From an uncultured virus (IMG/VR IMGVR_UViG_3300021400_003815) (Duplodnaviria; Heunggongvirae; Uroviricota; Caudoviricetes), in IMG/VR virus record IMGVR_UViG_3300021400_003815: a stretch of DNA of 43,290 bases; one strand, 5' to 3'. Both the position numbers and the translations under genes were made by a program. Position 1 is the stretch's first letter. Every line of letters starts with the position of its first letter. This document shows positions 9,079-39,735 of this stretch, piece by piece. The notes under the pieces are model-generated. The model made no database searches. It was not told the DNA's origin and saw only the letters and a list, made by a program, of their open reading frames with translations.

Positions 9079-9167
9079 TAGCATCCCCAAAATCCCCAAA
9101 ATCCAAAAATTTAATTTTTTAATTTAATATATAATATTTTACAGCTAGCTACTATATACTACTGACT

Positions 9168-9315
9168 TATTGCACATGTATCATTTATATTTCACTTATA
9201 CACACTCTCTCTTATCTTATACACACTCTATTATAACTTATCCACATTTCCACATAACTTATCCACTTATCAACATTTCCACATTAGTTGTACACATTTC
9301 CACACTCTATCCACA
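9168..9315 (+). promoter_or_regulatory. Cluster of co-oriented DnaA boxes
   Basis: Perfect TTWTNCACA at 9196, 9217 and 9238; one-mismatch boxes at 9168, 9246, 9259, 9267, 9275, 9288, 9296 and 9307. Confidence 0.8.
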
Positions 9316-9408
9316 CTCTATCTCACACCTATCAAACCTAAACTTTCCCAACCTAAAATTCAAAACCTTTATTTTTGGCAAATAATTTTTAAATTTTGGA
9401 AATCAGCC

Positions 9409-9594
9409 ACTGCTCATCAAAATTTTCAATACTGATACTCAAATTTTAACCCAACTGCCCCTCAAATTTTTTCAAGTCTGATATAATTTTTCAACCTTAC
9501 CTTCAACTTTAAATAACCAATTTTAATTTTTCAATATAGTTGAAATAGCACTTACTGCTACCAATTTTTAACCCTACTGATTCAATTTTAAATT
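9409..9594. repeat. Degenerate ~22-bp iteron-like direct repeats (ACTG-N3-6-CAA(A)TTTT)
   Basis: Units start at 9409, 9431, 9454, 9477 and at 9554, 9576 (22-23 bp period). Confidence 0.6.
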
Positions 9595-9648
9595 CCCTTA
9601 ACAATTATTCAATGCTTATCACATTTTCCATAACTGCTTTAATCTCTT

Positions 9649-12042: not shown

Positions 12043-13119
12043 TTATAAATTAATTAAATTACACTTAGTACTACCTAAAGGGGCAATATAATCTTTACAG
12101 GTACCAACATATAAACACAAATCATTAATATATTTTTTATAGTAGCTATCTACCTTAAGCTCTGAAATCTCCTTATTAATCTTAATGTATAATCCGTTCC
12201 ACTCACCTGCTAAATGTATATCTCTTAAATCAGTAACCTCATCACCTTTATATACATATAATCCGTCGCAATCAATAACAAATGTCGTGTCTGCTACTTT
12301 AACAGCTATTGGTTTAAAAAATCCATAAGGTGTCATTTCTAATATTGTATGTCTAGCAAATCCTCTAGGCTTAGCTAAAATTACATCTGCTAAATTATAT
12401 GTCTTACCATATTCCTCAATGTTAACTCTATATTTCTTATTGGTCTTTCCATCTTCTATACGAGTTACTAACTCTTGATACTCAATTACATTTGTATTCT
12501 CAGTGCCCTCTTCAACTTTAACTTCTGCTTTCTTTCTTCCTCTCTTATGCTTTTTAACCTCTTCAGTGCTCTCTTCATTTAAACTCTCTGAGTTATTTTC
12601 ATCACTTGCTACTTTTCTTCTTCTCTTAGGTGTCTTATTATCATCTCCTAATCTAACACCCCATCTAATTGCACTGACCTCAGTTTTCTCTACCTTGCCT
12701 CTACCTTTACTTCCATCATCCCAGTTAACTCTAACCTCAAGCTTAGTATTAGGTCTAAATGGTATAATCTGATATCTTCTGTTATTAATATCTTCTAATG
12801 TTATATCATCCTTTCTATCAGCATCACTTAAACCTGCTCTGTAGTTATCTACAGCCTCACTAACATTTATTCCAAAATCACCCTCAAATACTTGCTTATT
12901 TACATCAATTTTTTTAGTCTTATAAATTTTAGCTACTGACCCATCTAAATACATTTCATCAGCCACACAATATATAGTCTCACCATAAGACTCACTTGTT
13001 CGCCCTAAATAGGAACAAGATTTACTAACATTATTAATGAATCTATAGGTCTTTTCTCCTATAGCCATCTTACAAAATCCGTTACAATACTTGCTGCCAC
13101 AACTCTTACAAATGCCCAT
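12043..13119 (-). CDS. Hypothetical protein with N-terminal Cys4 cluster
   Basis: CKSC...CNGFC at the N-terminus; charged low-complexity insert; GGAG RBS. Confidence 0.7.
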   Translation of the reverse strand: MGICKSCGSKYCNGFCKMAIGEKTYRFINNVSKSCSYLGRTSESYGETIYCVADEMYLDGSVAKIYKTKKIDVNKQVFEGDFGINVSEAVDNYRAGLSDADRKDDITLEDINNRRYQIIPFRPNTKLEVRVNWDDGSKGRGKVEKTEVSAIRWGVRLGDDNKTPKRRRKVASDENNSESLNEESTEEVKKHKRGRKKAEVKVEEGTENTNVIEYQELVTRIEDGKTNKKYRVNIEEYGKTYNLADVILAKPRGFARHTILEMTPYGFFKPIAVKVADTTFVIDCDGLYVYKGDEVTDLRDIHLAGEWNGLYIKINKEISELKVDSYYKKYINDLCLYVGTCKDYIAPLGSTKCNLINL

Positions 13120-13142
13120 ATATACTCTCCTAAGTTTATATT

Positions 13143-13174
13143 AAAAATGCAGAGGCTTTTTACACCCCTGCATT
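13143..13174 (-). terminator. Rho-independent terminator
   Basis: AATGCAGGGG...CCTCTGCATT plus U-tract on the minus strand. Confidence 0.7.
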
Positions 13175-13197
13175 AAATACTTAAGATGAAAAGCCTT

Positions 13198-13824
13198 CTA
13201 CTTAAATTCGAGTATGCCCTTAACTTCACACATACCACTTAATTCTTTATACAAACTTTTCAAATCAATGACACTATTTAAGTTTATCTTATTTAGCGAT
13301 TGCACTGTGTTAAAATCTACAGCAACTTGCTCACCATTTATAAATGTATAATCTATACTAAATATAGGTAATCTTATCAAACTATTGTATTTACTCTCCA
13401 ACTCCTGTATACTATACAAGTAACTCTCTACCAAACCTGTATTCTTTATGATAACCCAGAATCTTCTCTTTCCAACCTGCACATATTTATATGTGTATCC
13501 ATCATATTGAGGACTAAGTACGCTACACAATTTATTCTGATACATCATATTAGCTTCAGCATATGTTGTAATCACCTTTCCTAGACCATTATGCTTAGTT
13601 ATATCGCTATAAACAACTAATAATTGGTTATTAGGAACATATATACTTGATACAGGAACTATATCTATAGTCTTTATGCCTAGTTGTTTAAGTTTTTTAA
13701 TCTCTTCAACTTTATTATTGTATAACCTTGTCCTTTTATATTCTATATTCTTTCCTGATGTATCATTAAAGTTTGATACATATGTATCATAAAAATCAAC
13801 AAAGTCTGATTTTATACTAATCAT
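13198..13824 (-). CDS. Hypothetical protein, possible divergent ATP-grasp fold
   Basis: C-terminal IFSIDY...VAVDFN resembles the ATP-grasp D...(E/D)xN pattern. Confidence 0.45.
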   Translation of the reverse strand: MISIKSDFVDFYDTYVSNFNDTSGKNIEYKRTRLYNNKVEEIKKLKQLGIKTIDIVPVSSIYVPNNQLLVVYSDITKHNGLGKVITTYAEANMMYQNKLCSVLSPQYDGYTYKYVQVGKRRFWVIIKNTGLVESYLYSIQELESKYNSLIRLPIFSIDYTFINGEQVAVDFNTVQSLNKINLNSVIDLKSLYKELSGMCEVKGILEFK

Positions 13825-14030
13825 ATTTTCTCACTAAGTAATTCAATGTCATTCTCAAGTTCTTCTATGTCAACCCCAGGCTCTAGATGCTTAATTTCAA
13901 ACTTACCTTTATCCTTAGATGTTTCATTAAGCATCTCAAGTAAAGGTTTAAGCTCCTCTTCACTACCTGAAGTTACATAAACAACTTTATCATCACTCAT
14001 CCTCAATACTATTGCATAATCAGCTACCAT
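13821..14030 (-). CDS. Small acidic hypothetical protein
   Basis: 69 aa; abuts the upstream gene and overlaps the downstream one by 4 bp; GAGG RBS. Confidence 0.7.
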   Translation of the reverse strand: MVADYAIVLRMSDDKVVYVTSGSEEELKPLLEMLNETSKDKGKFEIKHLEPGVDIEELENDIELLSEKI

Positions 14031-15611
14031 TTATATAGTTACCTCACTTGCAGTAAATATACTACCTATGTTTTCAAAAAGCTTAGGAGTCTGTTTACTA
14101 TTATCACTTGCAACATCAAACATATTTTCTATGTTCATATCATCTGTCTCTGAATCAGTTCCAATAACATCAATCTTATTCATAGCTTCTTCTAATTTAC
14201 TCTTGTTAACCTCAACATCATTGCTGTATATCTTTTCTATTATTGAAGCCTGCTTTTCAGAACAAACTTTATTTTTCTTTATTCTATTGCATATGTCAAT
14301 AACCATACTGTAAAAGCTATTATTCTTATAGCCTTTCTTATTTGTAACAAACTTCTTTACTTCAACTGACTTCTTAAGTAACTCATCTGAATATTTATTA
14401 TAATCATCTGCTACTTGAACTGCATTTGAAGTAGTCTTAAACTTGCTTGCATCCTTATCACCAGTAATCTTCTTATTGTTAACAATCTTATTATAATTGT
14501 CCTCAATAATTTTATACTGCTTCTCACTTAACTCATACTTTTTCTTTCTTATACAATCAGATGCTATCTTCCATGCAAGCTTAGAATACCAATCACCATA
14601 ATCAGGGTCAAGCTCTTTCTTAACAAGCTTTAACATATTTACTATCTTAATATCTTCTTCAAGCTCATCATCAGCACTGTCAAGATACTCTATAGGAGCA
14701 TTGCCTGCCAGTATCTTCTTCTGGTCACTCCCTAAAAAATCACCGTCTACTACATATGTTAGAGCTGATATAATCTCATTTACATTAGACTCTATCATAT
14801 CCTCAGTGCTTTTACACTCAACTAACTTAGCTCTCTTATAATAATTATTGTTATTTGTTAAAACCCAAGTAGCTATATAAATGTTTCTCTCAGCCTCTTC
14901 TGATATTAACAATTCTTTTTTCTTAACTACACCAGCTGGCATTTTCCTAACTTCACGCTTAGTAGCTAATCTCTCACCGTACTCTCCATAAACTACAAGA
15001 GTTTCTTTATATAACTTATTTGCTATTGTTTCCATTAAAGAGATTTTATGCTTACCATTACCAGTCACTACATCATATGCTTCAAGTATCTTACAAATAA
15101 TAATGAAACTATTCTCAACTAACTCATTGTTTCCACTGTCTCTTATTATATTTAATAAGTACTTTATAAATTCTACTTTATTAGCATTGATATTCTGAAT
15201 GTTAATATGATATTTAGAAGCTAGCTTATTAAGCTTGCTCTTAAGAATACTACTCTTTATATTAAAGTTATATTCTGATATAAGAGACTCACTTAAAGGT
15301 AACTTCTTCTCTACTAGCTCCTTAAACTCATCAGCTAGCTTTCCATCATAACTCTTAAGAGTTTCCTCAATATCAGGATAGTTCTCACTCGCATAAGTTG
15401 GAAGCTTAGAGTTTAATCTTACATAAGCACATATATTTAGCTCTGACTGTAACTTACTTTTTCTAAAAGCTCTTTTACTAGCTGGACCCTCATCACCAAT
15501 CAATATATCAAAAGCTTTATCATAAATCTCAAACTCTTCTGAACTAAAAGCTGCCTTTATCATTTCATCATCAGAGCTATATTGTGCTCTAAGTCTACTA
15601 TAATCAATCAT
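14031..15611 (-). CDS. Hypothetical helical protein
   Basis: 526-aa ORF with RBS; two SEKQxxII motifs in the C-terminal part. Confidence 0.75.
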   Translation of the reverse strand: MIDYSRLRAQYSSDDEMIKAAFSSEEFEIYDKAFDILIGDEGPASKRAFRKSKLQSELNICAYVRLNSKLPTYASENYPDIEETLKSYDGKLADEFKELVEKKLPLSESLISEYNFNIKSSILKSKLNKLASKYHINIQNINANKVEFIKYLLNIIRDSGNNELVENSFIIICKILEAYDVVTGNGKHKISLMETIANKLYKETLVVYGEYGERLATKREVRKMPAGVVKKKELLISEEAERNIYIATWVLTNNNNYYKRAKLVECKSTEDMIESNVNEIISALTYVVDGDFLGSDQKKILAGNAPIEYLDSADDELEEDIKIVNMLKLVKKELDPDYGDWYSKLAWKIASDCIRKKKYELSEKQYKIIEDNYNKIVNNKKITGDKDASKFKTTSNAVQVADDYNKYSDELLKKSVEVKKFVTNKKGYKNNSFYSMVIDICNRIKKNKVCSEKQASIIEKIYSNDVEVNKSKLEEAMNKIDVIGTDSETDDMNIENMFDVASDNSKQTPKLFENIGSIFTASEVTI

Positions 15612-15641
15612 ACTGTCTCACCTATATAATAAATTTGACAT

Positions 15642-16412
15642 TTACAATAACATACTTGACATACTTGCTAATCCATCAAGATCAGCCTGAACTTCTTCCT
15701 CACTGTTATCATTAATATCATCCTCTACTACAAATGAGCTATCTGTTTTTATACTGCTAGCAAACTTATTTATCTTTTCATTTCCCTTAAGATAATCACT
15801 TTTCTCTAATTTGTCTATTGACTTCTTAGCCTGTCTTACATTTTCTTTCGTAGCTTCTAAGTCTACTTTATTAACCTGCTGTGATGACTCATAATTTTCT
15901 TTTATTTCATTTACTATACCATCATAGTAATTAATTATAAACTCAAGCATCTCATCTACATTCTTATTTACTTCATTTATCTTTTCAGAAGTATATTTAG
16001 ACTCAAGATTGCCTATACCTAATATTCTACAAAGGTCATCTGTTTGTTTCCTAAGCATGAACTGAGCCATCATAAGATTCTTAGCCCTATCCTCAATGCC
16101 TATCTTCTTTCCAAATAAGGTCAACATATATAACTTATTTGTCATTTCGTAGATAGAATCTATTTTAGACTTAAGTTCATCAACCTTAGCTGTTGTCTCT
16201 GCAAAAAACTTTTTTCTATCCCCAGCTATGTTATCTGCAACTCCAAATTCCTTTCTGAATTGCTCATTATACTTATAGGCGAACCTTATAGTGTTATTGA
16301 TAAACCCACCAAGCTTGTGCTGGGCACGAAGTTTATCAACTTCTTCTACTATGTCCTTTTCTTGCTCTGAATCAAAAAATAAGGTTGCCCCTAATTTAAC
16401 TTTAGAAATCAT
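15642..16412 (-). CDS. Putative ParR-like ribbon-helix-helix DNA-binding protein with coiled coil and acidic tail
   Basis: N-terminal strand-helix-helix pattern KLGATLFFDSEQEKDIVEEVDKL...LGGFINNTIRFAY; two genes downstream of ParM; start reassigned to ATG 16412 behind GAGGT. Confidence 0.5.
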   Translation of the reverse strand: MISKVKLGATLFFDSEQEKDIVEEVDKLRAQHKLGGFINNTIRFAYKYNEQFRKEFGVADNIAGDRKKFFAETTAKVDELKSKIDSIYEMTNKLYMLTLFGKKIGIEDRAKNLMMAQFMLRKQTDDLCRILGIGNLESKYTSEKINEVNKNVDEMLEFIINYYDGIVNEIKENYESSQQVNKVDLEATKENVRQAKKSIDKLEKSDYLKGNEKINKFASSIKTDSSFVVEDDINDNSEEEVQADLDGLASMSSMLL

Positions 16413-16419
16413 AATATTT

Positions 16420-18924
16420 TTAAATACCTCTCGCCACAAGCTTGTTAAGTTCATCAAGCTTACTGTTCATTACTCTTACTTTATCAAAAGTAATACTCTT
16501 ACCAAATATAACATCAGTATAAGGGAATATGATATATGGCGCCTTGCTTAAACACTTATTCATCAATGTTGTCATCTCATTACTACGAGATAAATTCAAC
16601 AACCATATAGCCTTACTCTTACTTAACTTCTCAGAACTAAGTCTAAGAGTTAAACTTCTCATGTCATTTCCATCATGTCTTGCTACAAGTATCTTCTTGA
16701 AGCATATACCATCTAACATTCTCTGTATAGCACTCTGAACTTCAGAACCTCCAACTCTTCCACAATCACATACAATGTAATCATATTTATTTCCTAAGTA
16801 TGTAAGGAACTGAGTAAAGTCAGCCGCCATTAACATATTGATACTAGGTTTAGCATATACTCCACTTATATAGTCAAGAACCTTTCCATCCCTAGTTCTT
16901 AATACATTTTTAATAAGCAACTTCTCATTATCTATAAAGTAATCTATATCTTTATATAAGAATGTTCCTAAACCTGTCATGTATATAGCTGATTCAGCTG
17001 TAAAATCAGGTAATGTCTTTGACATAGGTGACAAATTGGTTTCTACACCAGCCATTTTACTAAGATACTCATTAGCCTTAGGTGATACAATATCTAAATC
17101 TAATAGTAATATCTTACCTTTTAATATGCTGCATAAACTAGCTGCTGTATTAGTTACTCCAACCGAACCGCTACCACATACATATAATATACTAGCCCTA
17201 CCTGTATAATCACACTCAAATGTAATCTCTGAATTAAACCTTGATGCTCTCATTATAGACTCATTGGTTCTTTTTAACTCTTCAACTTGACTTGACAGAT
17301 TACCAATTCTACTCTCCTGAGAATTTATCTTAACTTGAGCGTCATTCAATCTCTTCTGATAAACTCCAATCTCTCCTAACATAGCATCATTTGTTTTTCC
17401 AAGTATATTATTTTCTGTATCCAATGATGCTAAATCAAGTGACTGCAAATCAGTTAGCTTTTTATTAGCCTCTATAAGCTTAGAAGATACTTCCCTAAAC
17501 TTACCCTGCAACTGTACAAACTTACTCGATATTTCATTTTTCTCAGTCTCTAACTTATTAATCGTATTGTTAGAAGTTGCAACCATCTGCTCTATCTTCT
17601 TTTCATACTTCCTTGCAACTTCTTTTATTTTTCCATCTTTTTCAGCTAATGTACCTTGAAGTTCAACCATCTCACCTTGAAGTGATGTATAGTTATCTTG
17701 CAAAGCCATTGACTCTTTCAGTAAGTTATTGTACTCAGTTACTTTGCTATCAAGTAACTCCTTATTCTTAATTGCTTTATTACTAACTTCAACAAGAATA
17801 CTTGCAAATTTCTTACGAGCTTCATTCTCATCCTTAAACTTACTCTTATACTTATTAAGTTCAGAGTCATTGTTCTCAAGAACCTCAATCTTCTTTTCAA
17901 GCTCTTTCTGTTCTGACTCCTTCTTCTTAATTACCTCACTTAACTGATTTATTCTTTGATTAAGCTGTTCAATATCTGATACCTGAATATTTAACTCATC
18001 AATGGTCTTATTAAGTTCTGCTATACGAGCTTCATATTCATCCTTGCTACTATCACCGAATGTAACTTCAGTAACATCTTTATCAAGAGCAATTTTCTCT
18101 AACCTTGATACTAATTCATTCTTCTCAGCTTCAATTACACTCTTTAAATTATTGACTATCTTTAATCTATTAAGTGTATTCTCTAACCTATTAGATGTAT
18201 CTTCAATTATCTTATCTTTTTCTTCAAGTTCCTTTTGAATATCCTCAGATAATACTACAGTATCTTTATCCTTATTATCTGACTCAGTATCTTCAAATAA
18301 ACTCTCAATATTGAAACTCTCAATGTCATGCTTTGACTTAATAGTCTCGCTTATTTCAATATCTTCCTCTTCTTCATCTTCATTAGAGGCTGCATCTTCA
18401 TTAGCAGAGATTGCTTTTATGATATCAGCAATATCTTTATTTGCTTGCTCATTTTTCTCAGTATCTATGCTTTCTACAACAGTACTTTCTTCTTCTGTAC
18501 TACTCTCATCAAACAAATCCATAGAAACATCATTGTTTTCCTCAATGACTTTATTCTCTGTATGAAGTAATCCAGATGTCAGAACATCTACACTGAACTT
18601 GTTAGCCAGCAACTCTTGCAAGTTATTTAAACCAACAGCTGTATCAATATTATTTTCAGAGCAAACAGAACTTAGCTTTTCATCTATCTGCTGCTCTTCT
18701 GAGTAAACCACTACTGGTATATTAAACTCTTTACTTCTTGAGTTTATATCCAGTAGCTTATCATACTCATCATCAGCTAACCCATCTATTATAATGGTAT
18801 TTATATTTTCGTTGAGATTATCAACGAAGTAATTAAGTTCATTCCATGAAATTGCTCTGTATGCTTTAGTGTTTCTAAGTCTTATCTTAGACCTAGATGA
18901 TACTTTAATTACTGTTGATAACAT
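16420..18924 (-). CDS. Receiver-like / long coiled-coil / MinD-ParA(CpaE)-like ATPase fusion
   Basis: Heptad-rich region at about aa 225-560; C-terminal VCGSGSVGVT (deviant Walker A), LLLDLD, YDYIVCDCG; N-terminal IIIDG...IPVVVYS is receiver-like. Confidence 0.7.
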   Translation of the reverse strand: MLSTVIKVSSRSKIRLRNTKAYRAISWNELNYFVDNLNENINTIIIDGLADDEYDKLLDINSRSKEFNIPVVVYSEEQQIDEKLSSVCSENNIDTAVGLNNLQELLANKFSVDVLTSGLLHTENKVIEENNDVSMDLFDESSTEEESTVVESIDTEKNEQANKDIADIIKAISANEDAASNEDEEEEDIEISETIKSKHDIESFNIESLFEDTESDNKDKDTVVLSEDIQKELEEKDKIIEDTSNRLENTLNRLKIVNNLKSVIEAEKNELVSRLEKIALDKDVTEVTFGDSSKDEYEARIAELNKTIDELNIQVSDIEQLNQRINQLSEVIKKKESEQKELEKKIEVLENNDSELNKYKSKFKDENEARKKFASILVEVSNKAIKNKELLDSKVTEYNNLLKESMALQDNYTSLQGEMVELQGTLAEKDGKIKEVARKYEKKIEQMVATSNNTINKLETEKNEISSKFVQLQGKFREVSSKLIEANKKLTDLQSLDLASLDTENNILGKTNDAMLGEIGVYQKRLNDAQVKINSQESRIGNLSSQVEELKRTNESIMRASRFNSEITFECDYTGRASILYVCGSGSVGVTNTAASLCSILKGKILLLDLDIVSPKANEYLSKMAGVETNLSPMSKTLPDFTAESAIYMTGLGTFLYKDIDYFIDNEKLLIKNVLRTRDGKVLDYISGVYAKPSINMLMAADFTQFLTYLGNKYDYIVCDCGRVGGSEVQSAIQRMLDGICFKKILVARHDGNDMRSLTLRLSSEKLSKSKAIWLLNLSRSNEMTTLMNKCLSKAPYIIFPYTDVIFGKSITFDKVRVMNSKLDELNKLVARGI

Positions 18925-18951
18925 TTATTCTTACTCCTATAACTTAAACTC

Positions 18952-20079
18952 TTACATTCTAAGAGGCTTAGTTGAAAGCATTGTTCCAACAATATTAGCC
19001 ATTCTAGGATTATCATCAGGATATCCTACAACATCAATACCGTCACAGATATTTCTTAATGCCTCTGTAAGATATTCACTTACTGGCTCAGAGGTAACTA
19101 CTTCCTGATTAGTCTCTGTATCAAAATAGCTACTCTTCATTGAACCACCACCACTTACAAATATTGCCTTAATACCCATAAGAGGTACTCCAACAGTACC
19201 AAAATAGCTATCTATATTCTGAGCAAGCATTTCAGCAAACTCTTTCTTAGCTGAAATAAGTTCCTTACTCATATCCTTATAGGTACTTCCATAAGGAAGT
19301 CTACCCTCAGTAATGACTACCTCAGCATTCTCATCTGTAAGTTCTGAACCATAGATAGTCCTAACTCTATTTTTAATAATCTCCTTGATGACATTTCCAC
19401 CAATCTTATATGTCTGACCTGTTCTCTCCTGGAACCTTCTATCCTTAATAAGTACAAAATCAGATGTACTTGCTCCAATATCACAGCTTAATACATAACC
19501 TCTATTGTACTTAGCTGTCTCTACTCTAGGTACACCCTTTTCATTAAAGAAGAAAGCAACTGAAGCCTGCTCACTCTCTGAAACAATCTTAGCATCTTTA
19601 ATCTCAAAGATAATCTCTCTATTAAATGTGTTAAATTTAACCTTAAATGTTCCAATAAGCTGACTTCTAATATAATCTGCTGTCATCTTATTAGCCTCAA
19701 GAGGAGGAAAATCAATTATTACAGCAACAGTAGGGTCAATACCTGAACTCATAATTCCAGATGCTACAGCTGTAATAATAGACACATAATTAACTCTCTG
19801 CTTACTCTTATTTGAGTTCATTGAAGGTCTAAGATTAGTAGGCTTATATCTCTCAGCCAGAGTACCAATAAGTGCTCTTACTGGGAAATAAGCTGTTTCT
19901 CCCTCAATCTTATTGATTGTAATATCAAAGTTGTCAAACAAATCATTGCTATTAGGAACCAAGTATGTATCAACATCCTCATCAATAAACACCATATTAT
20001 TAGGATTGACCCAAATTGGCCCCTCATTAACAACATATCTAGTACTAGATGCTCCCTGATCAACACAAATAGTATTCAT
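18952..20079 (-). CDS. parM: Actin-like ParM/StbA family ATPase
   Basis: CVDQGASST (phosphate 1), CDIGASTSD (phosphate 2), VSGGGS (adenosine), PRMANIVG (connect 2). Confidence 0.85.
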   Translation of the reverse strand: MNTICVDQGASSTRYVVNEGPIWVNPNNMVFIDEDVDTYLVPNSNDLFDNFDITINKIEGETAYFPVRALIGTLAERYKPTNLRPSMNSNKSKQRVNYVSIITAVASGIMSSGIDPTVAVIIDFPPLEANKMTADYIRSQLIGTFKVKFNTFNREIIFEIKDAKIVSESEQASVAFFFNEKGVPRVETAKYNRGYVLSCDIGASTSDFVLIKDRRFQERTGQTYKIGGNVIKEIIKNRVRTIYGSELTDENAEVVITEGRLPYGSTYKDMSKELISAKKEFAEMLAQNIDSYFGTVGVPLMGIKAIFVSGGGSMKSSYFDTETNQEVVTSEPVSEYLTEALRNICDGIDVVGYPDDNPRMANIVGTMLSTKPLRM

Positions 20080-20133
20080 TTTACTCTCCTTAAATCTTTA
20101 ATCTTAACTTCTGAATCTACTACTCTCATATGC

Positions 20134-20184
20134 AATAAAAAAGTAGCAATTATTATATTTTTTAAATATAACAACTACTACTTT
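20134..20184 (-). terminator. Long AT-rich terminator hairpin between the Tad locus and parM
   Basis: About 20-bp inverted repeat whose mismatches all become G-U pairs in the minus-strand RNA, followed by Us. Confidence 0.65.
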
Positions 20185-20208
20185 ACAGCCTCTATGAACT
20201 TACTTTCC

Positions 20209-20844
20209 TTATATCTTTATTTTATACTGTATAAGAGAAACTTCCTTTCCATCATCTCCAACATCAAAATCATTTAATATTGAAGCATCTTTAAAATCTC
20301 TAGCATAATAATTTTTCTTAACTTCTACTTTAGGAGCTACAAAATTCATAGCATCAGCTTCTGCTTCATCATCAGCACCAGATACTATATAATTCTCATT
20401 GTATCCACTTAATACCTTATAAACAGACATCATATTTTCAAATGGTACATAATCAATTTTAGATAGCTCTGAACTTGACTCTTTAGCTATTGCTTTCATT
20501 CTCTTACGAATATACTCAGCCATACCAGAATCAGTATAAACTACTGTAGCATCCAAAGCTATATTATTAACTAACCCTAGTATATCAATTAAAGACTCTC
20601 TATTTTCTGTCTTAGAGAATATACCAAGCCCATTCTCTACTATAACTAATCTTCTATGATACTCACATATATCCATAAGAGCATATCTTAAATCATCTAT
20701 GTTATATATCAAAGCTTCAACTTTAATTCCCATTGAATTAAAGTATCTGACTACTCCACTTTTAGGAGCCTCCATTAGAATAATTAGAGATGAGTCTATT
20801 TTTACAACTTCAGCTTTATTCTTTTTATTTCCAAATAATCCCAT
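20209..20844 (-). CDS. Hypothetical protein, possibly receiver-like alpha/beta fold; last gene of the Tad cluster
   Basis: Probable start MGLFGNKK at 20844; alternating strand/helix pattern. Confidence 0.6.
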   Translation of the reverse strand: MGLFGNKKNKAEVVKIDSSLIILMEAPKSGVVRYFNSMGIKVEALIYNIDDLRYALMDICEYHRRLVIVENGLGIFSKTENRESLIDILGLVNNIALDATVVYTDSGMAEYIRKRMKAIAKESSSELSKIDYVPFENMMSVYKVLSGYNENYIVSGADDEAEADAMNFVAPKVEVKKNYYARDFKDASILNDFDVGDDGKEVSLIQYKIKI

Positions 20845-20854
20845 GCTACACACC

Positions 20855-21886
20855 TTATCTTATAATGTAATAAATTATACTATTCTTTACACCATATCCT
20901 ACATTAGATGACTGGAAGTTATCACCTGACAGTACACTAATATCTTCATTACGTCCACCATATGTTGATAATGTTGTTTCACCTTCAAATTCAGGACCAT
21001 CAGCTTCCAATCTTCTGTATTGAACTAAATCAGCATCTGCACCACTATTTCTTGATGTATTTAACACCCAAGCAAATATCCTCTTTATTGGAGTTAATCC
21101 CTCATATCCAACACGCATTGAAAACTCCGGCTCTGCTATCATAACTGTAGCTCTTTCATCATCAGATTCTATACCGCTTTGACTTAAGTAATTATCAACA
21201 TCAATATTAGTTAATCTCTCAAACTTCTGTGCATCTGCACTGTCAAATAGGTTATACACAGTGTACTTTATATCTGTGATATGTAATGTGTTATAATATA
21301 CTCTGAAACCCTTAAACACTACATAGTCACCATCAACACTATTACTAACTACCATATCATTGGAGCCATTCATAAGAGCTAATACAAGCTCCCATCTGAA
21401 TATCTTCTCTAATGCTGTCTTGTCTAAGTAGCATATACCCATATTTAAGGGAGTTATCATATCATTCACATAGTATCTAGCTAAAACATCTTCACCTTCA
21501 GAAACTCCACCACCGTATCCTAATCCATATCCAAGTATGTTTAATCTTCTCCAATAGCCTCTATAATTATTTATAAACACTTGAAAATCTCTACTGTTAG
21601 CATATAAATTTCTATATACATCCTTATCATTATTTCCAATGTAAAATCTTCCATTTATAGAGGATGGAGCTGCACCATCTTTTCCAACTATCTGGTATGC
21701 GTTTCCACTATGATTCTTATATGATTCCTGTGCAAAATACTGACAAGACTGTTGAAGTGTTAGCCTAGCCATTGAGCTTAGAACTGGAGTATTAGTACTT
21801 ACATTAAATATCTCTATCATTAGAGATGTCAATACCATAAATGTTATTGTGCCTATTATAGCTTTAAATATAGTCTTTACACCCAT
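20855..21886 (-). CDS. Putative TadG/TadE-like minor pilin
   Basis: N-terminal MGVKTIF plus one hydrophobic helix, then a soluble domain; position after the pilin in a Tad locus. Confidence 0.5.
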   Translation of the reverse strand: MGVKTIFKAIIGTITFMVLTSLMIEIFNVSTNTPVLSSMARLTLQQSCQYFAQESYKNHSGNAYQIVGKDGAAPSSINGRFYIGNNDKDVYRNLYANSRDFQVFINNYRGYWRRLNILGYGLGYGGGVSEGEDVLARYYVNDMITPLNMGICYLDKTALEKIFRWELVLALMNGSNDMVVSNSVDGDYVVFKGFRVYYNTLHITDIKYTVYNLFDSADAQKFERLTNIDVDNYLSQSGIESDDERATVMIAEPEFSMRVGYEGLTPIKRIFAWVLNTSRNSGADADLVQYRRLEADGPEFEGETTLSTYGGRNEDISVLSGDNFQSSNVGYGVKNSIIYYIIR

Positions 21887-21898
21887 TTTAATTCCTAC

Positions 21899-22474
21899 TC
21901 AATCCAAATCTGCATAATACTGTAAACCAGGTACTGTATAATAAATATCAAAAGGTAATACTCTCTTTTTAGATTCCCTTAACGAATTTAGTGTACCATC
22001 ATTGTAAATAGTTGAGTTATTACTGAGATTACCTATATCATCACCTGCATGTACTTCAGTAGCATGTACTCCATATTCCTGAGGCATAAGAGGCCAAATC
22101 CAAGTGTAATCATAATGAATACCTATTGTCTTACTTGAACCGTACTGAGTTCTTCTATTATTAGAAGCATTAGGTCTAGTTGGTACATAAGCATTATTAC
22201 TTCCTCTTCTAGATGTATCATATACTGCTACATATGCATTACTTATTAAATTACTGTTATTACATATATCATCAAGACCACTTTGAATTGCAACTCTTTC
22301 TCTTTCTGGTATGAAATTACTTTCCATACAGGTCTGCATTACAGTGTATGATAAACCTAAAAATTTAAAATAAAATACCAACATAAATATAATATTGAAT
22401 ATTATATAGGATACAGCTATAATAGCTGGTATCTTCAATAATGTTTTAAATATCATTTTTACGCCATCAGACAT
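21899..22474 (-). CDS. Putative TadE-like minor pilin
   Basis: N-terminal MSDGVKMIF plus hydrophobic helix; directly downstream of the pilin. Confidence 0.5.
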   Translation of the reverse strand: MSDGVKMIFKTLLKIPAIIAVSYIIFNIIFMLVFYFKFLGLSYTVMQTCMESNFIPERERVAIQSGLDDICNNSNLISNAYVAVYDTSRRGSNNAYVPTRPNASNNRRTQYGSSKTIGIHYDYTWIWPLMPQEYGVHATEVHAGDDIGNLSNNSTIYNDGTLNSLRESKKRVLPFDIYYTVPGLQYYADLD

Positions 22475-22491
22475 TACAAACTCCTTATATT

Positions 22492-22530
22492 AAATAAAGG
22501 GCACCTATTTGCTTTAAATAGATGCCCTTT
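22492..22530 (-). terminator. Terminator/stabilising hairpin after the pilin gene
   Basis: AAAGGGCATCTATTT-N5-AAATAGGTGCCCTTT on the minus strand. Confidence 0.75.
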
Positions 22531-22561
22531 AGTCTTTAGTTTTTATTTAATGATTTAATCA

Positions 22562-22828
22562 TTAGTTCGTTGAGCTATCAAAACCCTGAACTGCGTTACC
22601 ATTACCCATAGCAACTGAGTTATCTGTCTTAGCTGAACCCTGACCAATACTACCATCACCATTGATCTCAAGATCCATACCTGTACCAGCCTTGATGCTC
22701 TTCTCAACAGCACCGCTTGCACCAGTAATAACATTAGGTAATGCAGTATTAAGGAACCAACCACCTGCTATCAGAATAGCTACAACTAAGATAAGTAACA
22801 AGAAAATTTTCTTAACTCCACTGCTCAT
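22562..22828 (-). CDS. Putative major Flp-like pilin
   Basis: 88 aa, MSSGVKKIF plus a 20-aa hydrophobic helix and Gly-rich tail; strong AAGGAG RBS; own downstream hairpin; follows tadC. Confidence 0.65.
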   Translation of the reverse strand: MSSGVKKIFLLLILVVAILIAGGWFLNTALPNVITGASGAVEKSIKAGTGMDLEINGDGSIGQGSAKTDNSVAMGNGNAVQGFDSSTN

Positions 22829-22926
22829 TTCTTTCTTTACTCCTTTATTAATATTAATAAAAATTACAATGTATTATTTTTAATACACATCCTTACAAGT
22901 TACTGACTATTAAAATCTACATTATT

Positions 22927-24018
22927 TTATATAATGCCTAATTTTAGGTCAGGTACATATATCAGCATTGCAGATAATATAACCTGAACAAGAACCAAAG
23001 TAGTTAAACCAAAGGAAGCTCTTGCCCTTGCTACTAGCTTATCTACATGTTTCTCAAGTCTATATCTCTTATCCTCAATAATCTGCTTTCTAAAACCTAC
23101 TAGCTCAGACTTAATGTCACCGCCTTCATTCTGCTGTCTTATAAGTCTCATTAATCTGGTTACTTCAGGAATTTCTCTGTACTTATGAGCTATATAAGTT
23201 GTTGCTCCTAATTCACCATAAGTATCTATAAGATTTATAGACTCATCAACAAATCTTTCCATTTCTTTAGACCTGTTAATTCTACTATAGCTCTTAAATG
23301 TAGTTGCTATAGGTGTACCACTATCAGACATAAGTTCATAATGAAGCATTAAGTATAAGTCAGGAAAATTATCAACTATTTCGTTATCTTTATCAGCTAC
23401 AATTCCTCTTATAAAGACTATTGGAACATTGTTACAAAGTATAAATGATATTATACAGAACATTACACCAACTATTGCATTTACAAATAAAATTATAAAT
23501 GCGCCTATAAAAAAACCTATAGATGTACCAAGCTTACATAATGAATCAAACTCATCTGGAGTTAAATATCTAAAGCCACCAAATGTTCTTATATTGGCTC
23601 TCTCAATGTTATACTTTAAATATTCTCTCTGCTGAACTGATAACTTAAGACCACTAATCTTTACTATACCTACTACCTTATCCATTAACCTGTTCATGTT
23701 TAAGATAGCTGTGTCTCTTCGCTTAATTGAATCAGCTACTGTTCTTTCTCCCTGTATAGCTTTACCAGTAAATATACTTCTTACACCCAATACCCTGAAT
23801 ATCATTATTATAGCCATAATAGCTAAAAGGGCAATAGCTAATATTCTTACATAAGGCAGATACTCAAACTGTTTAATTACTCCTTCATTGTACCAGGTAT
23901 ACTTAAAAGCTTCATCCTGAGCTACTAGTACATCACCACCCCCTACTGTACCTTTTACATTTCTTATTGATTCATTTTGACCAAGAGCATAAACCTTATT
24001 TATAAATCCAATGTTCAT
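22927..24018 (-). CDS. tadC: TadC-like pilus assembly membrane protein (T2SS F domain)
   Basis: TM pattern; NFPDLYLML...SGTPI, QQNEGGDIKSEL, C-terminal TM; follows TadB. Confidence 0.7.
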   Translation of the reverse strand: MNIGFINKVYALGQNESIRNVKGTVGGGDVLVAQDEAFKYTWYNEGVIKQFEYLPYVRILAIALLAIMAIIMIFRVLGVRSIFTGKAIQGERTVADSIKRRDTAILNMNRLMDKVVGIVKISGLKLSVQQREYLKYNIERANIRTFGGFRYLTPDEFDSLCKLGTSIGFFIGAFIILFVNAIVGVMFCIISFILCNNVPIVFIRGIVADKDNEIVDNFPDLYLMLHYELMSDSGTPIATTFKSYSRINRSKEMERFVDESINLIDTYGELGATTYIAHKYREIPEVTRLMRLIRQQNEGGDIKSELVGFRKQIIEDKRYRLEKHVDKLVARARASFGLTTLVLVQVILSAMLIYVPDLKLGII

Positions 24019-24019
24019 A

Positions 24020-25018
24020 TTAAATCTCCTCTGCTCTAAGTGCTGTTATAATAACAAATTCTGATATAATCAGAATAAAATCAATCAACAGTATTATTTG
24101 ACCAACTAGAGTTGTTAGATATAAATTTCTAATATAAGGATACATTAGAAATAGTCCACCTAAGAAACCAAATATCATTAATATACCAATTATAAAATCT
24201 GCAACTACAGCATCAAATTTTCTTTTCATGCTTATTCTCAGTTCAGACTTTATATTATTTACTTCTACTACGTCTTTAAATATTCCTACCAGACCAACTT
24301 CTTCTTCAAGTTCAAGTGTTATACACTTCTGAATAAAGTCTTTAGATATAGACCCTAAATTGTCCTGTAATCTCAGTAATGCTACCTCTATATGTGAGTT
24401 TGTTTCCTCAACATCATCTATAAAGTCTCTAAAAGCATTAAACAGTGACCTTGGCATACTATCTAAGTTAGACTTAACAGCAACTACAACACCCTTATCT
24501 ATATTATTTGATATAATATTTTCTGCTAGTATTACATCCTCAATTCGATTGTCATGACTAACATTAGCTTTTGTATATAACAAACATAATACTGCAATCA
24601 ACAGAGGTATATAAGCTAGTATTGAAAATACTAAACTTCCAAATAACAATGTTCCCATCAGCAACGATATGATTAAGGAAGCCATATTAGCAAAGAATAA
24701 CAATTCATAAGGAGTAACACCTTTCTTCTTAAGGTCCAAGTCAATGATTAAATCATTTAACCACTGATGAAGTTTAACTTTAAAAGAGTTATCATTAATT
24801 CTACCAATCTGAACTCCTCTCTCATAGTCAGACTCCATATGACTTATTCTTTTACCTACAAGTCTAGTCAGAAATCTTAAGACCGCATACAATACATCTT
24901 TTGGCTTAATCTTAAATATATAGATTAAAGTAAATAATGCTATTGTTATTAAAATTACAATAACAGTCTCTGTAATGCTATGAGATGTTATTGTCATGGT
25001 ACTTGTACTTTCACCCAT
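24020..25018 (-). CDS. tadB: TadB-like pilus assembly membrane protein
   Basis: TM pattern; C-terminal PYIRNLYLTTLVGQIIL typical of TadB; follows TadA. Confidence 0.72.
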   Translation of the reverse strand: MGESTSTMTITSHSITETVIVILITIALFTLIYIFKIKPKDVLYAVLRFLTRLVGKRISHMESDYERGVQIGRINDNSFKVKLHQWLNDLIIDLDLKKKGVTPYELLFFANMASLIISLLMGTLLFGSLVFSILAYIPLLIAVLCLLYTKANVSHDNRIEDVILAENIISNNIDKGVVVAVKSNLDSMPRSLFNAFRDFIDDVEETNSHIEVALLRLQDNLGSISKDFIQKCITLELEEEVGLVGIFKDVVEVNNIKSELRISMKRKFDAVVADFIIGILMIFGFLGGLFLMYPYIRNLYLTTLVGQIILLIDFILIISEFVIITALRAEEI

Positions 25019-25025
25019 AGCTACC

Positions 25026-26528
25026 TCACTTTCTCAAATGATAATAAACTATGTCGTCATTGTTACCATCATATGTTTCAGTTTCTGGATTATCAGCATC
25101 AACATCATTAAGCATAAAATCAAATCTATCAGAGTTAATACCTTCAAGCTTTAGCTTATTAATGGTTCTCTCTGAGAGCTTTCCAACTCTCTCATGGTGT
25201 CCATACATATTTATTACGTTACCATATTCATCATTCTCTGAATAATCTGTCTTAAATACATATAAATCATTTACCTTAGGATTTCCATTATCATCCAATC
25301 CAGTTACTTCACTCACCTGAATGACCTTACGAGTACCATCTTTAAGTATCTTCTGGAATATTACAAGATTTAACATACTTGTTAATGTCTTATAAATACT
25401 TTCCTTACCCTCTTTTGTTTCACCCTGAACAGCCTGAGCAAATCTATCAATTGCTCCTAGAGCACTCTCAGCATGGAATGTACAGTTAAATGGGTGTCCA
25501 GCCTGTCCAATCTGTAAACCTCTTACAAACTCCAAATTAGAACGAAGCTCTCCAAAACATACAAAGGTAGGAGACAGTCTCAATATATGGTTCATAAGAT
25601 TTTCCATAGTAGGAGATGTACTTAAAGGATTTTCAATTTCCTGTGCCTCCAAATGAAGTACGTCATTATAAATTCTACCACTAGAATCTCTCATTCTCAA
25701 ATCAATCTCAGAAGGATTCTGAGCAAGTACAACTCTAGTTGTAGGAGGTACAGCTTGTAATATACCCTGATTAGTTGTTGTCTTACCAGATGCTGTAGGA
25801 CCTACCGTGAAAAATGTTAAACCACCAGCCATTGCTAATGCTAACAGTCTAGCCATATTATCACTTAATGTACCATACTTAACTATATCACCTAAGTTCA
25901 TCTTTGACTTCTTAAACTTACGAAGTACAAAAGCTGCATAATCATTATTTGAAGGGTCTATAGGGTCATCTGCAAGAGCTGTACTATGTAAAGCTGCTAT
26001 ACGGAAACCCTCAATAGTTCTTGCATTTACTACAGCGTCCTTAGGAGTTAATCTTACATCTCCTAATAACTTTCTCATGACTATCTGCTGTTGCTGAGGA
26101 GATTCAAACCTTATTATTCTACCCTCTTCATCTGTATAGTCCTTAATTCTACCCTTAGTCTCTATCTTAATTTCCTTACCATTACATCTGATTTCATAAA
26201 CATCATCATTTCTCATTGCTAGAGTCAGTATACCGTAATCAGTGATATCCTGAACAAGTCTCTGTATCAATCCAGATGTATCTGACTTTCCCTCAGCATC
26301 TATATAACCTTCAGCTAATGGTCTTGTATCCATTATAAATCTTACTATAAGATTTGTAATAGCTTTTGTTTTCTCTTCACCTGATTTACTCTTATAGTAA
26401 TCAGCATTTGTTTGAATAAAACGTCTACACTCATTAACTACAAAGTCAATAGGCTTTGGAGCACCTGCTCCTTTCTTACCTTGAGCACTTCTTTTAGTCT
26501 GAAGCTCTATCAATCTTTCATTTGTCAT
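25026..26528 (-). CDS. tadA: TadA/CpaF pilus assembly ATPase
   Basis: DYGILT...DDVYEI, LRKF, Walker A GPTASGKTT, LRLSPTFVCFGELR, GH...TFHAES, DGTRKVIQVSEV. Confidence 0.9.
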   Translation of the reverse strand: MTNERLIELQTKRSAQGKKGAGAPKPIDFVVNECRRFIQTNADYYKSKSGEEKTKAITNLIVRFIMDTRPLAEGYIDAEGKSDTSGLIQRLVQDITDYGILTLAMRNDDVYEIRCNGKEIKIETKGRIKDYTDEEGRIIRFESPQQQQIVMRKLLGDVRLTPKDAVVNARTIEGFRIAALHSTALADDPIDPSNNDYAAFVLRKFKKSKMNLGDIVKYGTLSDNMARLLALAMAGGLTFFTVGPTASGKTTTNQGILQAVPPTTRVVLAQNPSEIDLRMRDSSGRIYNDVLHLEAQEIENPLSTSPTMENLMNHILRLSPTFVCFGELRSNLEFVRGLQIGQAGHPFNCTFHAESALGAIDRFAQAVQGETKEGKESIYKTLTSMLNLVIFQKILKDGTRKVIQVSEVTGLDDNGNPKVNDLYVFKTDYSENDEYGNVINMYGHHERVGKLSERTINKLKLEGINSDRFDFMLNDVDADNPETETYDGNNDDIVYYHLRK

Positions 26529-26552
26529 TCTTAATTTACCTTCTTACTCACT

Positions 26553-27437
26553 TTATACAACACCACCAGCATCTTCAATTAATGCTGTCTTTAGCTTGTT
26601 TATCTCACTCATATAGTAGTTAGAACTCTTGCTAGTTGCTTTACCACTAACTGTATAGAGCTGACCCTTTAACCCGCATTCTATAACACCAATTTCAAAA
26701 GGTATTATTGCTTCAAGATTAATACCCATCTTAGTTAAGTTACTTTCAGGATAAAAGAAGTTAGTTCTCTTATTCATTATGTATTTAACTTTCTTAGTAT
26801 GAATACCTGTTACTTCACAGTTATTTAAAAACTTCTCTGTATTTATAATACTCTTAACTCCATCATCCAAAATACAATAGATAGTATCAGACTTATACAG
26901 TGCTGTATTTACTAAATCAAACTCTACTTTAGAACTAGGACAGTCTATAAGAATAACATCAAATGAACTTGTCATTCCATCAAGCAATCTCTCAAATTCC
27001 TTAGACATTTCTCCATTATCAAGACCTATATATTCCTGTAATGTTCTATTATTAGCAACTAAGACTCCAATGTTATTTGAGTACTGTATACTCTCACCAG
27101 CTCTATTTAAACCCTGCATATAAGTTACAAAGTCTTTAGCCTTAACATCATAATCTCTGTATAGATTAAAGAATATATGCTGACTTGGATACATAATATC
27201 CAAGTCAATAACTAGCACTGACAGACCAGCATTTTTTAATTCTACTGCTAATGTAGCAACTAATGTACTACTTCCTACACCACCAGATAAACCTATAAAT
27301 GCCATTACTTTATTTAGAGTTCTACTTCTAAATTCCTTACGCCCTGCCATATCTAATATAGCAGAATCTATTTTCTTACCAACAGCATCTATATCAAGTA
27401 TTCCGCTACTCTTTACCTGCTCTTCATTATTTTCCAT
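26553..27437 (-). CDS. cpaE: CpaE/TadZ-like MinD/ParA family ATPase
   Basis: GLSGGVGSST deviant Walker A, VLVIDLD, FDVILIDCP, IMNK; between cpaB and tadA. Confidence 0.78.
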   Translation of the reverse strand: MENNEEQVKSSGILDIDAVGKKIDSAILDMAGRKEFRSRTLNKVMAFIGLSGGVGSSTLVATLAVELKNAGLSVLVIDLDIMYPSQHIFFNLYRDYDVKAKDFVTYMQGLNRAGESIQYSNNIGVLVANNRTLQEYIGLDNGEMSKEFERLLDGMTSSFDVILIDCPSSKVEFDLVNTALYKSDTIYCILDDGVKSIINTEKFLNNCEVTGIHTKKVKYIMNKRTNFFYPESNLTKMGINLEAIIPFEIGVIECGLKGQLYTVSGKATSKSSNYYMSEINKLKTALIEDAGGVV

Positions 27438-27457
27438 TGATACATACCCCTTACTTA

Positions 27458-39533: not shown

Positions 39534-39534
39534 T

Positions 39535-39735
39535 TTATTTATGTTCCTCACTTAAACTAGACAGAATATAATTATACTTTATAATACTATCATCCAATTC
39601 ATTATAGTATTCTTTTATTATAATATCACCTTTAGATGCATGAAATAATTTTCTAGCCCTATTTCTCTCTTTCTCTAAAGACTCTATAATATTACTTACT
39701 GATTCCTTTAATATCTCTTTATTACTCATAATCAA
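39535..39735 (-). CDS. Small hypothetical protein
   Basis: 66-aa ORF with AAGGGA RBS, ending next to the CorC start. Confidence 0.55.
   Translation of the reverse strand: MIMSNKEILKESVSNIIESLEKERNRARKLFHASKGDIIIKEYYNELDDSIIKYNYILSSLSEEHK

Follow-up and report, generated by a model that had tools for sequence, protein, structure and literature searches.

A ParM-type gene, a four-part coiled-coil protein gene and a ParR-like candidate: the putative front of an actin-type partition operon on a very large plasmid-like element

Actin-type plasmid partition is taught as a minimal three-part machine, consisting of a motor, an adaptor and a centromere. The window studied here, a stretch of 43,290 nucleotides from an uncultured virus record (IMG/VR IMGVR_UViG_3300021400_003815; about 31% GC, with all sizeable open reading frames (ORFs) on the minus strand), raises the question of what else such a machine may contain: a conserved gene for a protein of 834 amino acids (aa), referred to below as the giant protein, separates the gene of a ParM-like motor from that of a candidate adaptor (Table 1). 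A sequence-only reading of this DNA had proposed that the three genes form a positioning system in which a TadZ-derived tether connects the pole of the cell, or the adjacent Tad pilus, with the actin-driven segregation of DNA. All three ORFs were found on the minus strand where that reading had placed them, as was the 27-bp spacer between parM and the giant gene (18925-18951). The explanation that we favour, at a probability of roughly 0.55, is that the locus is the front of a type II-like actin partition operon with a conserved, probably non-catalytic coiled-coil accessory protein, carried on a very large plasmid-like element.

The three encoded proteins

Judged by its sequence, the product of the first gene is an actin-like ATPase of the ParM/Alp family whose nucleotide motifs are intact. 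The 375-aa protein matches the Pfam family MreB-like_C (30.5 bits against a cut-off of 27.8, E 6e-7) and the PHROG phrog_691, annotated as 'partition protein' (1e-23). Among solved structures it matched the C. botulinum pCBH ParM (6izr/6ixw, 3.6e-6) and Alp7A (5.6e-3), with no other solved relatives, and a tblastn search matched it to ParM/StbA genes of large Bacillus plasmids. There are 188 ParM homologues with ALP_N and/or MreB-like_C, and the actin-fold motifs for the nucleotide (phosphate and adenosine) are invariant in a 50-sequence alignment (D7 G9 S11, D200 G202 T205, and G310-G312). The gene adjoins pilus-like genes, and precomputed PilM_2 matches exist for 2 of the 120 best-listed homologues (P0196 and P0279), as would be expected if the protein were a PilM-type pilus-assembly part of the adjacent Tad-like machine and no DNA-segregation motor. 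However, the window protein has no PilM family match at E <= 0.01, its best matches are phage and plasmid partition proteins and ParM/Alp structures, and a hairpin followed by a T run stands between its gene and the pilus block; we consider a PilM-type role highly improbable.

The full-length giant protein is not covered by any Pfam or NCBIfam family. Its architecture was modelled with AlphaFold2 (AF2) on 60 family members (mean pLDDT 78, with both terminal domains above 90), and the model, together with ESM Atlas, Foldseek and VIA comparisons, bears out the series of domains proposed from the sequence, namely a receiver-like head, an acidic linker, a long coiled coil and a MinD-like domain. 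The head is predicted as a five-strand, four-helix alpha/beta domain (strands E2-7, E19-24, E43-47, E71-75, and E94-97), and the ESM Atlas model of residues 1-120 aligns with Response_reg clusters at TM 0.66-0.72, a comparison between predicted models only; no Pfam Response_reg match was found in the protein. The pocket of a CheY-type receiver consists of an acidic pair after strand 1, an Asp after strand 3 and a conserved Lys. Strand 1 of the giant protein ends in K7-V8-S9 with no acidic pair there, so that the phospho-acceptor pocket is not in place, and position 47, an aspartate in the window protein, is a glutamate in at least 90% of the 60 members; the head is therefore a pseudo-receiver. 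It carries a motif found family-wide, VKVGxxSxIxFxNxKAYRAIT. The linker that follows is predicted to be disordered (pLDDT below 50 over residues 120-225) and is strongly acidic, with 37 D/E and 8 K/R in residues 111-225; it includes an LF motif, L137 and F138, which is invariant in five homologues. Four long helices come next in the AF2 model (226-278, 294-350, 353-487, and 504-562; 304 aa in total), each with a hydrophobic periodicity of 3.5 residues that was matched by at most 9 of 1000 shuffles, and the breaks between them (279-293, 351-352, and 488-503) could allow the modelled coiled coil to fold back.

The C-terminal domain has the MinD/ParA (SIMIBI) fold in the AF2 model. The Foldseek matches include FlhG 4rz2 (2.7e-8) and MinD 4v02 (7e-7), and those of VIA include MinD 3r9j (Z 20.8, rmsd 2.9 over 221 residues) and ParA 3ea0 (Z 20.6), with ParA, FleN, and Soj at most one Z unit away. 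At the level of Pfam models the isolated C-terminal 275 residues give sub-threshold matches only: CbiA at 18.5 bits against 25.4 (2e-3), AAA_31 at 11.7 against 27, and a BY-kinase match that is likewise sub-threshold. The consensus of the deviant Walker A motif is KGGxxK[ST], with a signature lysine and a P-loop lysine. The motif of the giant protein, GSGSVGVT, is without the Walker A lysine, just as had been noticed from the sequence, and the signature lysine is missing too.

The giant protein belongs to a large unnamed family of fixed four-part build, comprising at least 253 clusters. We searched a profile of the C-terminal domain against 1.84 billion cluster representatives, and it matched 253 of them at E <= 1e-3, 242 at E <= 1e-10, and 204 at E <= 1e-30; among the 150 matches listed, nearly all are proteins of 560-1178 aa that have the domain at the C-terminus. 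GK[ST] occurs in the P-loop-like motif of a single member out of 151, the consensus being GSGS[YF]G[IV]T. In a pattern search, 118 of 137 long members have an N-terminal motif of the VKVG..YRAIT type, and in 108 of the 137 an acidic window (net charge -15 or more) lies just after it. These counts of motif, acidic window and domain position indicate that the four-part build is a signature of the family and no one-off fusion. The family is without a Pfam model and without a name in the sources searched, and its profile gave no MinD or ParA below E 0.1 when compared with the PDB; this result and the narrow spread of the matches suggest that the profile stops short of canonical MinD/ParA. The ESM Atlas labels the family cluster Viruses/Uroviricota. 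Members occur on contigs of up to 453 kb (P0097, P0112, and their relatives on contigs of 208-453 kb), and tblastn searches of phages and plasmids with the giant protein, and with the members P0097 and P0038, gave no match; blastn of window DNA 15000-21000 gave no match in phages or plasmids either.

The third gene begins at TTG 16457 in the ORF listing, overlapping the giant gene, and at ATG 16412 in protein record P0011 and in all homologues; the ATG is the likelier start, giving a protein of 256 aa and a gap of 7 bp to the giant gene. In an alignment of this protein with its 18 homologues (A3, 19 sequences) there is a conserved N-terminal block, KLGATLxF...E.D...L..L...HKLGEFI...IR, with a beta-helix-helix (beta-alpha-alpha-like) pattern, followed by a conserved helical middle, a variable acidic stretch (..VVEDDINDNSEEEVQADLDGLASMSSMLL in the window protein) and a conserved C-terminal DLxxLxxF. 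The acidic tail of the earlier description, 'a probable ribbon-helix-helix (RHH) protein with an acidic tail', is thus present; the RHH fold is a candidate reading of the sequence pattern and of two predicted helices in a poor AF2 model of the monomer (pLDDT 56; helices 19-31 and 35-47, a terminal helix 246-255, and residues 1-18 unstructured). A feature search of the ESM Atlas with residues 1-60 returned unnamed clusters only, at 0.85. The combination of an RHH-like N-terminus, an acidic linker and a C-terminal helix follows the logic of an adaptor, from which we infer that the third protein looks ParR-like. When ParM was modelled together with the third protein's residues 196-256, without controls, the scores were 0.30 and 0.24 against a mark of 0.32, which speaks neither for nor against binding.

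Gene order, co-occurrence and transcription

ParM and the giant gene travel together across distant lineages. At the DNA level the window was compared with one other lineage, represented by the IMG/VR genomes G001 (264.6 kb) and G002 and by one metagenome contig (loci L001-L003); searches for further loci gave none in genome contigs, only G001 and G002 in viral contigs, and one locus in metagenome contigs, and searches of the viral contigs with A5, P0097, P0031, and P0112 gave no loci. The gene order is common to both lineages: ParM, giant and third gene are followed by genes for proteins of 526, 69, and 208 aa in the window, and of 482, 87, and 200 aa in the second lineage. The identities between the two are 53% for ParM, 27% for the giant protein, about 40% for the third protein, 33% for the 526-aa protein and 41% for the 208-aa protein; the 69-aa protein gave no match in this comparison. 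Across L001-L003 as a whole, the identities of the 526- and 208-aa proteins range over 33-42%. L001 12432-13619 (in G001) holds an insertion sequence (IS) transposase gene (395 aa; phrog_506, 1e-98) between the giant and adaptor-like genes, which is absent in L002 and L003.

Beyond these loci, linkage was assessed by proxy: we compared the lengths of the longest contigs reported for protein clusters, taking an exact match in bp as the mark of a shared contig, between the giant clusters and the best 120 ParM and 18 third-gene matches. For 9 of 20 giant clusters the longest contig is identical in bp to that of a ParM homologue (37301, 6890, 46637, 126432, 7127, 6589, 52786, 152899, and 46543 bp); one further giant cluster pairs with a third-gene homologue (74012 bp), and the remaining 10 are without a match among the matches listed. 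ParM P0189 and the third-gene homologue P0025 are both reported at 43537 bp. The pairs on contigs shorter than 7.2 kb place ParM and the giant gene within a few kb of each other, and the giant proteins there are 24-26% identical to that of the window. With the same order in G001, G002, and L003, and with matching contigs for 10 of 20 giant clusters, the proposal that the three genes are conserved together holds.

These data also bear on the possibility that the giant protein has nothing to do with ParM, shares its operon by descent and serves transfer, aggregation or envelope organisation, with ParM and the third protein forming an ordinary two-protein system. The whole region is collinear between the lineages, and the operon holds three more genes of unknown function, both of which would suit such an explanation; but the giant gene is flanked by parM at a distance of 27 bp and by the adaptor gene at a distance of 7 bp, and the link between ParM and giant protein holds down to about 24% identity of the latter and on contigs of less than 7.2 kb. 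We judge a giant protein without any connection to ParM to be improbable.

The operon does not have the two-gene form of motor plus adaptor, since the 834-aa gene lies in between and three further genes come before the terminator. The 526-, 69-, and 208-aa proteins have no family match in Pfam, PHROG, and NCBIfam scans, and their genes probably belong to the parM transcription unit. The C-terminus of the 526-aa protein is an acidic, motif-like tail. Besides the terminator that follows the 208-aa gene, the consensus scan found a strong one at 22495-22531, 3' of the 88-aa pilin-like gene. A terminator had also been proposed at 20134-20184, between the Tad-like genes and parM: the hairpin is there (arms 20140-20160 and 20164-20184, 86% complementary, with a T run after it), yet it is AT-rich and the consensus scan made no call, and its role may be that of a terminator or that of an operator. 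At the equivalent boundary in L001 and L002 there is a hairpin rich in GC (GGGCGAGGG/CCCTCGCCC) and then a T run. From the two consensus terminators and the boundary hairpins in both lineages, the transcription unit is likely to consist of six genes, from parM through the 208-aa gene, apart from the Tad-like genes. Two metatranscriptome runs of the same sample contained no contigs over 13000-22600.

A candidate for a replication origin or centromere, on sequence grounds, is a repeat-rich intergenic region of 549 bp (9100-9648), 6 kb downstream. Four copies of a 21-29-nt unit (21-bp iterons) lie at 9194-9293, with 11-nt repeats following at 9299-9333, and upstream of them the region has several repeats rich in AAAATT; no clear counterpart was found in L001 19900-20330.

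Table 1. Positions of the features discussed, in window coordinates
Feature	Position	Strand	Basis or remark
ParM/Alp-type actin-like ATPase gene, 375 aa	18952-20079	minus	ORF and family matches
Four-part 834-aa (giant) protein gene	16420-18924	minus	ORF and AF2 model
Predicted receiver-like (pseudo-receiver) N-terminal domain, residues 1-110	18595-18924	minus	AF2 and ESM Atlas
Predicted disordered acidic linker, residues 111-225	18250-18594	minus	AF2 and composition
Predicted coiled-coil region, residues 226-562	17239-18249	minus	AF2 helices and heptad periodicity
Predicted C-terminal MinD/ParA-fold domain, residues 570-834	16423-17217	minus	Foldseek and VIA
P-loop-like motif GSGSVGVT, residues 584-591	17152-17175	minus	Without signature lysine and Walker A lysine
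ParR-like candidate adaptor gene, 256 aa	15642-16412	minus	Homologues and alignment
Three co-oriented conserved genes, 526/69/208 aa	13198-15611	minus	ORFs; downstream of the adaptor-like gene
Consensus intrinsic terminator after the 208-aa gene	13146-13174	minus	11 pairs, 5 GC, then T run
AT-rich 21-nt inverted repeat and T run, between Tad-like block and parM	20140-20184		Terminator or operator
Tad/type IV pilus-like block	20209-28324	minus	Pfam, NCBIfam, sequence features
294-aa MinD-like gene	26553-27437		Directly before the T2SSE ATPase gene (25026-26528), the tadZ slot

The TadZ question and other known systems

The Tad-like block encodes a 288-aa membrane protein, a 294-aa MinD-like protein, a 500-aa T2SSE/FlaI/TadA-like ATPase (best match the archaellum FlaI, 2e-27) and two polytopic membrane proteins; its 88-, 191-, and 343-aa proteins have a common hydrophobic N-terminus, GVKxIF, and are prepilin-like. 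The sequence-only reading took the giant protein to be a descendant of TadZ/CpaE, by which actin-driven segregation is tethered either to the pole or to the Tad-like machine for a pilus or for secretion. TadZ/CpaE proteins have an atypical receiver N-domain, ARD (bioRxiv 10.64898/2026.07.08.737194), and the receiver-like head and lysine-less MinD-fold domain of the giant protein are the TadZ domain pair, the head being similar to receivers in predicted models only. Moreover, the Tad-like block lies directly upstream in both lineages, its own 294-aa MinD-like protein is without both P-loop lysines as well (GLSGGVGSST), and the transfer of plasmid R1 is enhanced by its ParM and ParR, both of which bind conjugation proteins (PMC4949242).

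Specific descent from TadZ was not supported by these comparisons. The TadZ-like structure 3fkq ranks 40-42 with Z 17.9, behind MinD, ParA, and FleN at Z 20-21. In an equal search space the giant-family profile scores the 294-aa MinD-like protein of the Tad block at 15.7 bits and its L001 homologue at 2.9, against 14.9 for FlhG, and the NCBIfam model CpaE_hom_Actino gave 0.11, for the L001 homologue only. With equal scores for the Tad-block protein and FlhG and a rank of 40 for 3fkq, the resemblance to TadZ is one of domain types, with no demonstrated descent. The slot before the ATPase gene is already occupied by the 294-aa gene, and the giant gene lies beyond the whole block and beyond the hairpin; the two domains of the giant protein lie about 450 residues apart, with the acidic linker and the coiled coil in between, unlike in TadZ, and no specific sequence kinship was detected. 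A tie of the giant protein to the Tad pilus or the pole fares no better, since both lineages have the hairpin and T run between the blocks, and what is left is adjacency alone: the collinear stretch begins with the Tad-like block and extends through unrelated genes as far as the PolA-like gene, about 22 kb in all, and adjacency to tad therefore carries no special weight, while the short contigs that join ParM and the giant gene say nothing about tad. A tether derived from TadZ accordingly seems unlikely to us. Two kinships within the window were considered and dropped: that of the giant C-terminal domain to the 294-aa protein (hhalign 92%, E 5.7e-7), because the same hidden Markov model (HMM) scores the 294-aa protein like FlhG, and that of the 214-aa protein of the Tad block to the giant head, for which the hhalign probability is 0.3%.

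Compared with MinD, ParA, and FlhG, the C-terminal domain shares the fold over 213-226 residues (Z 19-21), but both P-loop lysines are missing throughout the giant family. The type II ParMRC systems (R1, pSK41, pCBH, and Alp7A/Alp7R) resemble the locus in that the operon opens with the gene of an actin-fold ATPase of the ParM/Alp type. ParR binds ParM via its C-terminus, and like ParR the small downstream protein of the window has an RHH-like N-terminus and a conserved C-terminal helix. The differences are that the 834-aa gene lies between motor and adaptor here, that the adaptor has about 256 aa with a large helical middle, that no upstream repeat-array centromere was found, and that the ParM of the window shares very little identity with solved ParMs (E 4e-6).

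Accessory coiled-coil proteins are known from other partition systems. In the type III TubZRC system, motor and adaptor alone can carry out transport in vitro, but stable maintenance also depends on TubY, a coiled-coil third protein that becomes part of the segrosome and binds membrane (PMC7762940). The giant protein resembles it as a coiled-coil-bearing third accessory protein of a cytoskeletal partition operon, whereas TubY has a MerR-like helix-turn-helix, a short tetrameric coiled coil, a lysine tail and a tubulin-like motor, and bears no sequence or domain relation to the giant protein. KfrA of IncP-1 and IncU plasmids is likewise an accessory coiled-coil partition protein (PMC7821693, PMC7783346), which has a globular head and a long alpha-helical tail and is found on large low-copy conjugative plasmids; unlike the giant protein it has a DNA-binding head and a type I ParA partner, and neither a MinD fold nor a receiver-like domain.

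An analogous layout is found on pXO16 (pAM65-52-2-350K) of B. thuringiensis, where a ParM/StbA gene (430 aa) is followed by genes for proteins of 583 and 269 aa. The 583-aa protein has an N-domain, an acidic linker with GDLFEEF, a coiled coil and a C-terminal alpha/beta region with no visible P-loop-like motif, and the 269-aa protein is RHH-like at its start, with a hydrophobic helix closing its acidic tail. The two ParMs are 26% identical (E 2e-13), and no significant similarity to the window was detected for the middle protein or the third: hhalign aligned the coiled coil only (C-domain 0.7%, third protein 3.9%), and BLAST of the N-domain gave E 26. pXO16 itself is described as a 350-kb low-copy conjugative plasmid, whose coding sequences all point the same way; it has few homologues and is suspected to be phage-like (PMC6199540). 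The parallel extends to layout only, and the element here resembles pXO16 in style. No description of a ParM operon with such a third gene was found in the full-text literature, supplements not covered, and to that extent the layout is undescribed, as the sequence-only reading had held; TubY, KfrA, AlpAC and the connection of R1 ParM/ParR with conjugation come nearest to it in concept.

The element and a possible role for the giant protein

The window encodes PolA-like, 5'-3' exonuclease, RecJ-like, and UvrD proteins, a giant NlpC/P60 protein, DUF285 proteins and a methylase, and no tRNA was found in it. Its relative G001 is filed in IMG/VR as a virus, has direct terminal repeats and is 100% complete according to CheckV. 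The 222 ORFs of at least 90 aa in G001, nearly all on one strand, include a full replisome, topoisomerase II, ligase, an FtsK/SpoIIIE-like ATPase, NlpC/P60 hydrolases, and transposases. Among them there is no capsid, portal, sheath, or baseplate, and no tail match beyond hydrolases of the NlpC/P60 type; the sole terminase match covers 47 residues (3.5e-6), and the Pfam models Terminase_6N and Phage_capsid gave no match, nor did Gp23, although the Gp23 control also matched nowhere. As for conjugation markers in G001 and G002, Relaxase gave no match and AAA_10 only sub-threshold P-loop matches, with no clear VirB4. Fragments that are 90-99% alike occur in a gut metagenome run of a second study. 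We lean towards a plasmid-like, very large, low-GC extrachromosomal element of gut metagenomes, here from an animal gut, with its genes all one way, and G001 may be a plasmid-like element filed among viruses.

A very divergent jumbo phage or phage-plasmid, in which the trio organises or moves replicating phage DNA inside the cell, as AlpC/AlpA of prophage CGP3 or PhuZ do, instead of partitioning a plasmid at division, would fit the filing of the relatives in IMG/VR, the terminal repeats and CheckV value of G001, the Viruses/Uroviricota label of the family cluster, and the large replication set of window and G001 (PolA, RecJ-like, UvrD, 5'-3' exonuclease, primase, clamp loader, and topoisomerase II). 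AlpAC is an example of a phage actin-adaptor pair (PMC5539076). As a lead only, some family contigs, at 348-370 kb, are about as large as the gut 'Jug' phages, and the 'Jug' huge-phage preprint cites a ParMRC review (PMC12363816). Against a phage stand the missing structural genes and the near absence of terminase in G001 just described, and no tblastn match of the giant family or of the window ParM was found in 50,697 GenBank phage records, so we hold a phage nature of the element to be rather unlikely.

Several genes of these elements deserve mention beside the operon. Three adjacent DUF285 (BspA-like repeat) genes with internal 75-bp tandem repeats lie at 2317-4908 (minus strand). A 408-aa protein encoded at 6169-7395 (minus strand) consists of the polymerase domain only of a family A DNA polymerase and is 51% conserved in relatives; G001 additionally encodes a separate 1168-aa PolA. 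A CNNM/CorC-type transporter gene (CNNM, CBS, and CorC_HlyC; phrog_10948, 4e-76) is located at 38319-39551 (minus strand).

Several observations weigh against a partition operon with a non-catalytic accessory protein on a plasmid-like element. The Pfam RHH families are matched by none of the 19 third-protein sequences at E <= 5, and the A3 profile gave nothing relevant in the PDB. No direct-repeat array was found 5' of parM (in the 129-bp region, in 20075-20215, or in L001 8600-8830), where only inverted repeats occur, a single one of 21 nt in the window region. The C-terminal domain of the giant protein retains the aspartates of Walker A' (DxD) and Walker B, which leaves nucleotide binding possible. 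Only two lineages were compared, collinear over about 22 kb, and order alone therefore cannot tell a functional module from vertical inheritance; the matching contigs are a proxy for a shared contig and silent on gene order. The viral filing and label given above run counter to a plasmid-like element.

On the partition reading that we favour, the 256-aa protein would be a ParR-like adaptor. It would bind a centromere through its RHH-like N-terminus, and the conserved helix at its C-terminus, carried by an acidic tether, would be the docking site for a partner, of which ParM is the likeliest. The giant protein would not hydrolyse ATP, its coiled coil standing in for ATP-driven dimerisation; its part in the segrosome would be structural and accessory, that of a rod reaching at most about 45 nm at full extension, with two end domains and linker motifs that bind partners. 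It might either anchor the complex of ParM, ParR, and DNA to a landmark of the cell (the membrane, the nucleoid, or the element's own envelope machines) or tune the dynamics of the ParM filament, by analogy with TubY for TubZ-TubR and KfrA for IncC-KorB.

More speculatively, and with odds that we put well below even, the giant protein could be a kinetochore-like coupler for very large replicons. It would be a constitutive coiled-coil dimer whose dead ParA/MinD domain, having retained the surface by which ParA-type motors bind partners, holds either the tail of the adaptor or the DNA complex, and the pseudo-receiver head and the linker motifs hold the ParM filament or an envelope machine such as the Tad-like apparatus. 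If this were true, the operon would encode a real type I/type II hybrid, in which three proteins make up an actin-based machine for segregation, and vertical inheritance may be coupled to cell-to-cell transfer.

If the giant protein does belong to the machine, type II systems would have in it their equivalent of TubY and KfrA, and the ParA/MinD fold would have been reused without catalysis. Such a protein could account for the way in which replicons of hundreds of kb are held or moved in the cell. Its family is also a marker for a poorly known class of giant elements of the gut, now filed among viruses although no capsid genes are seen in them.

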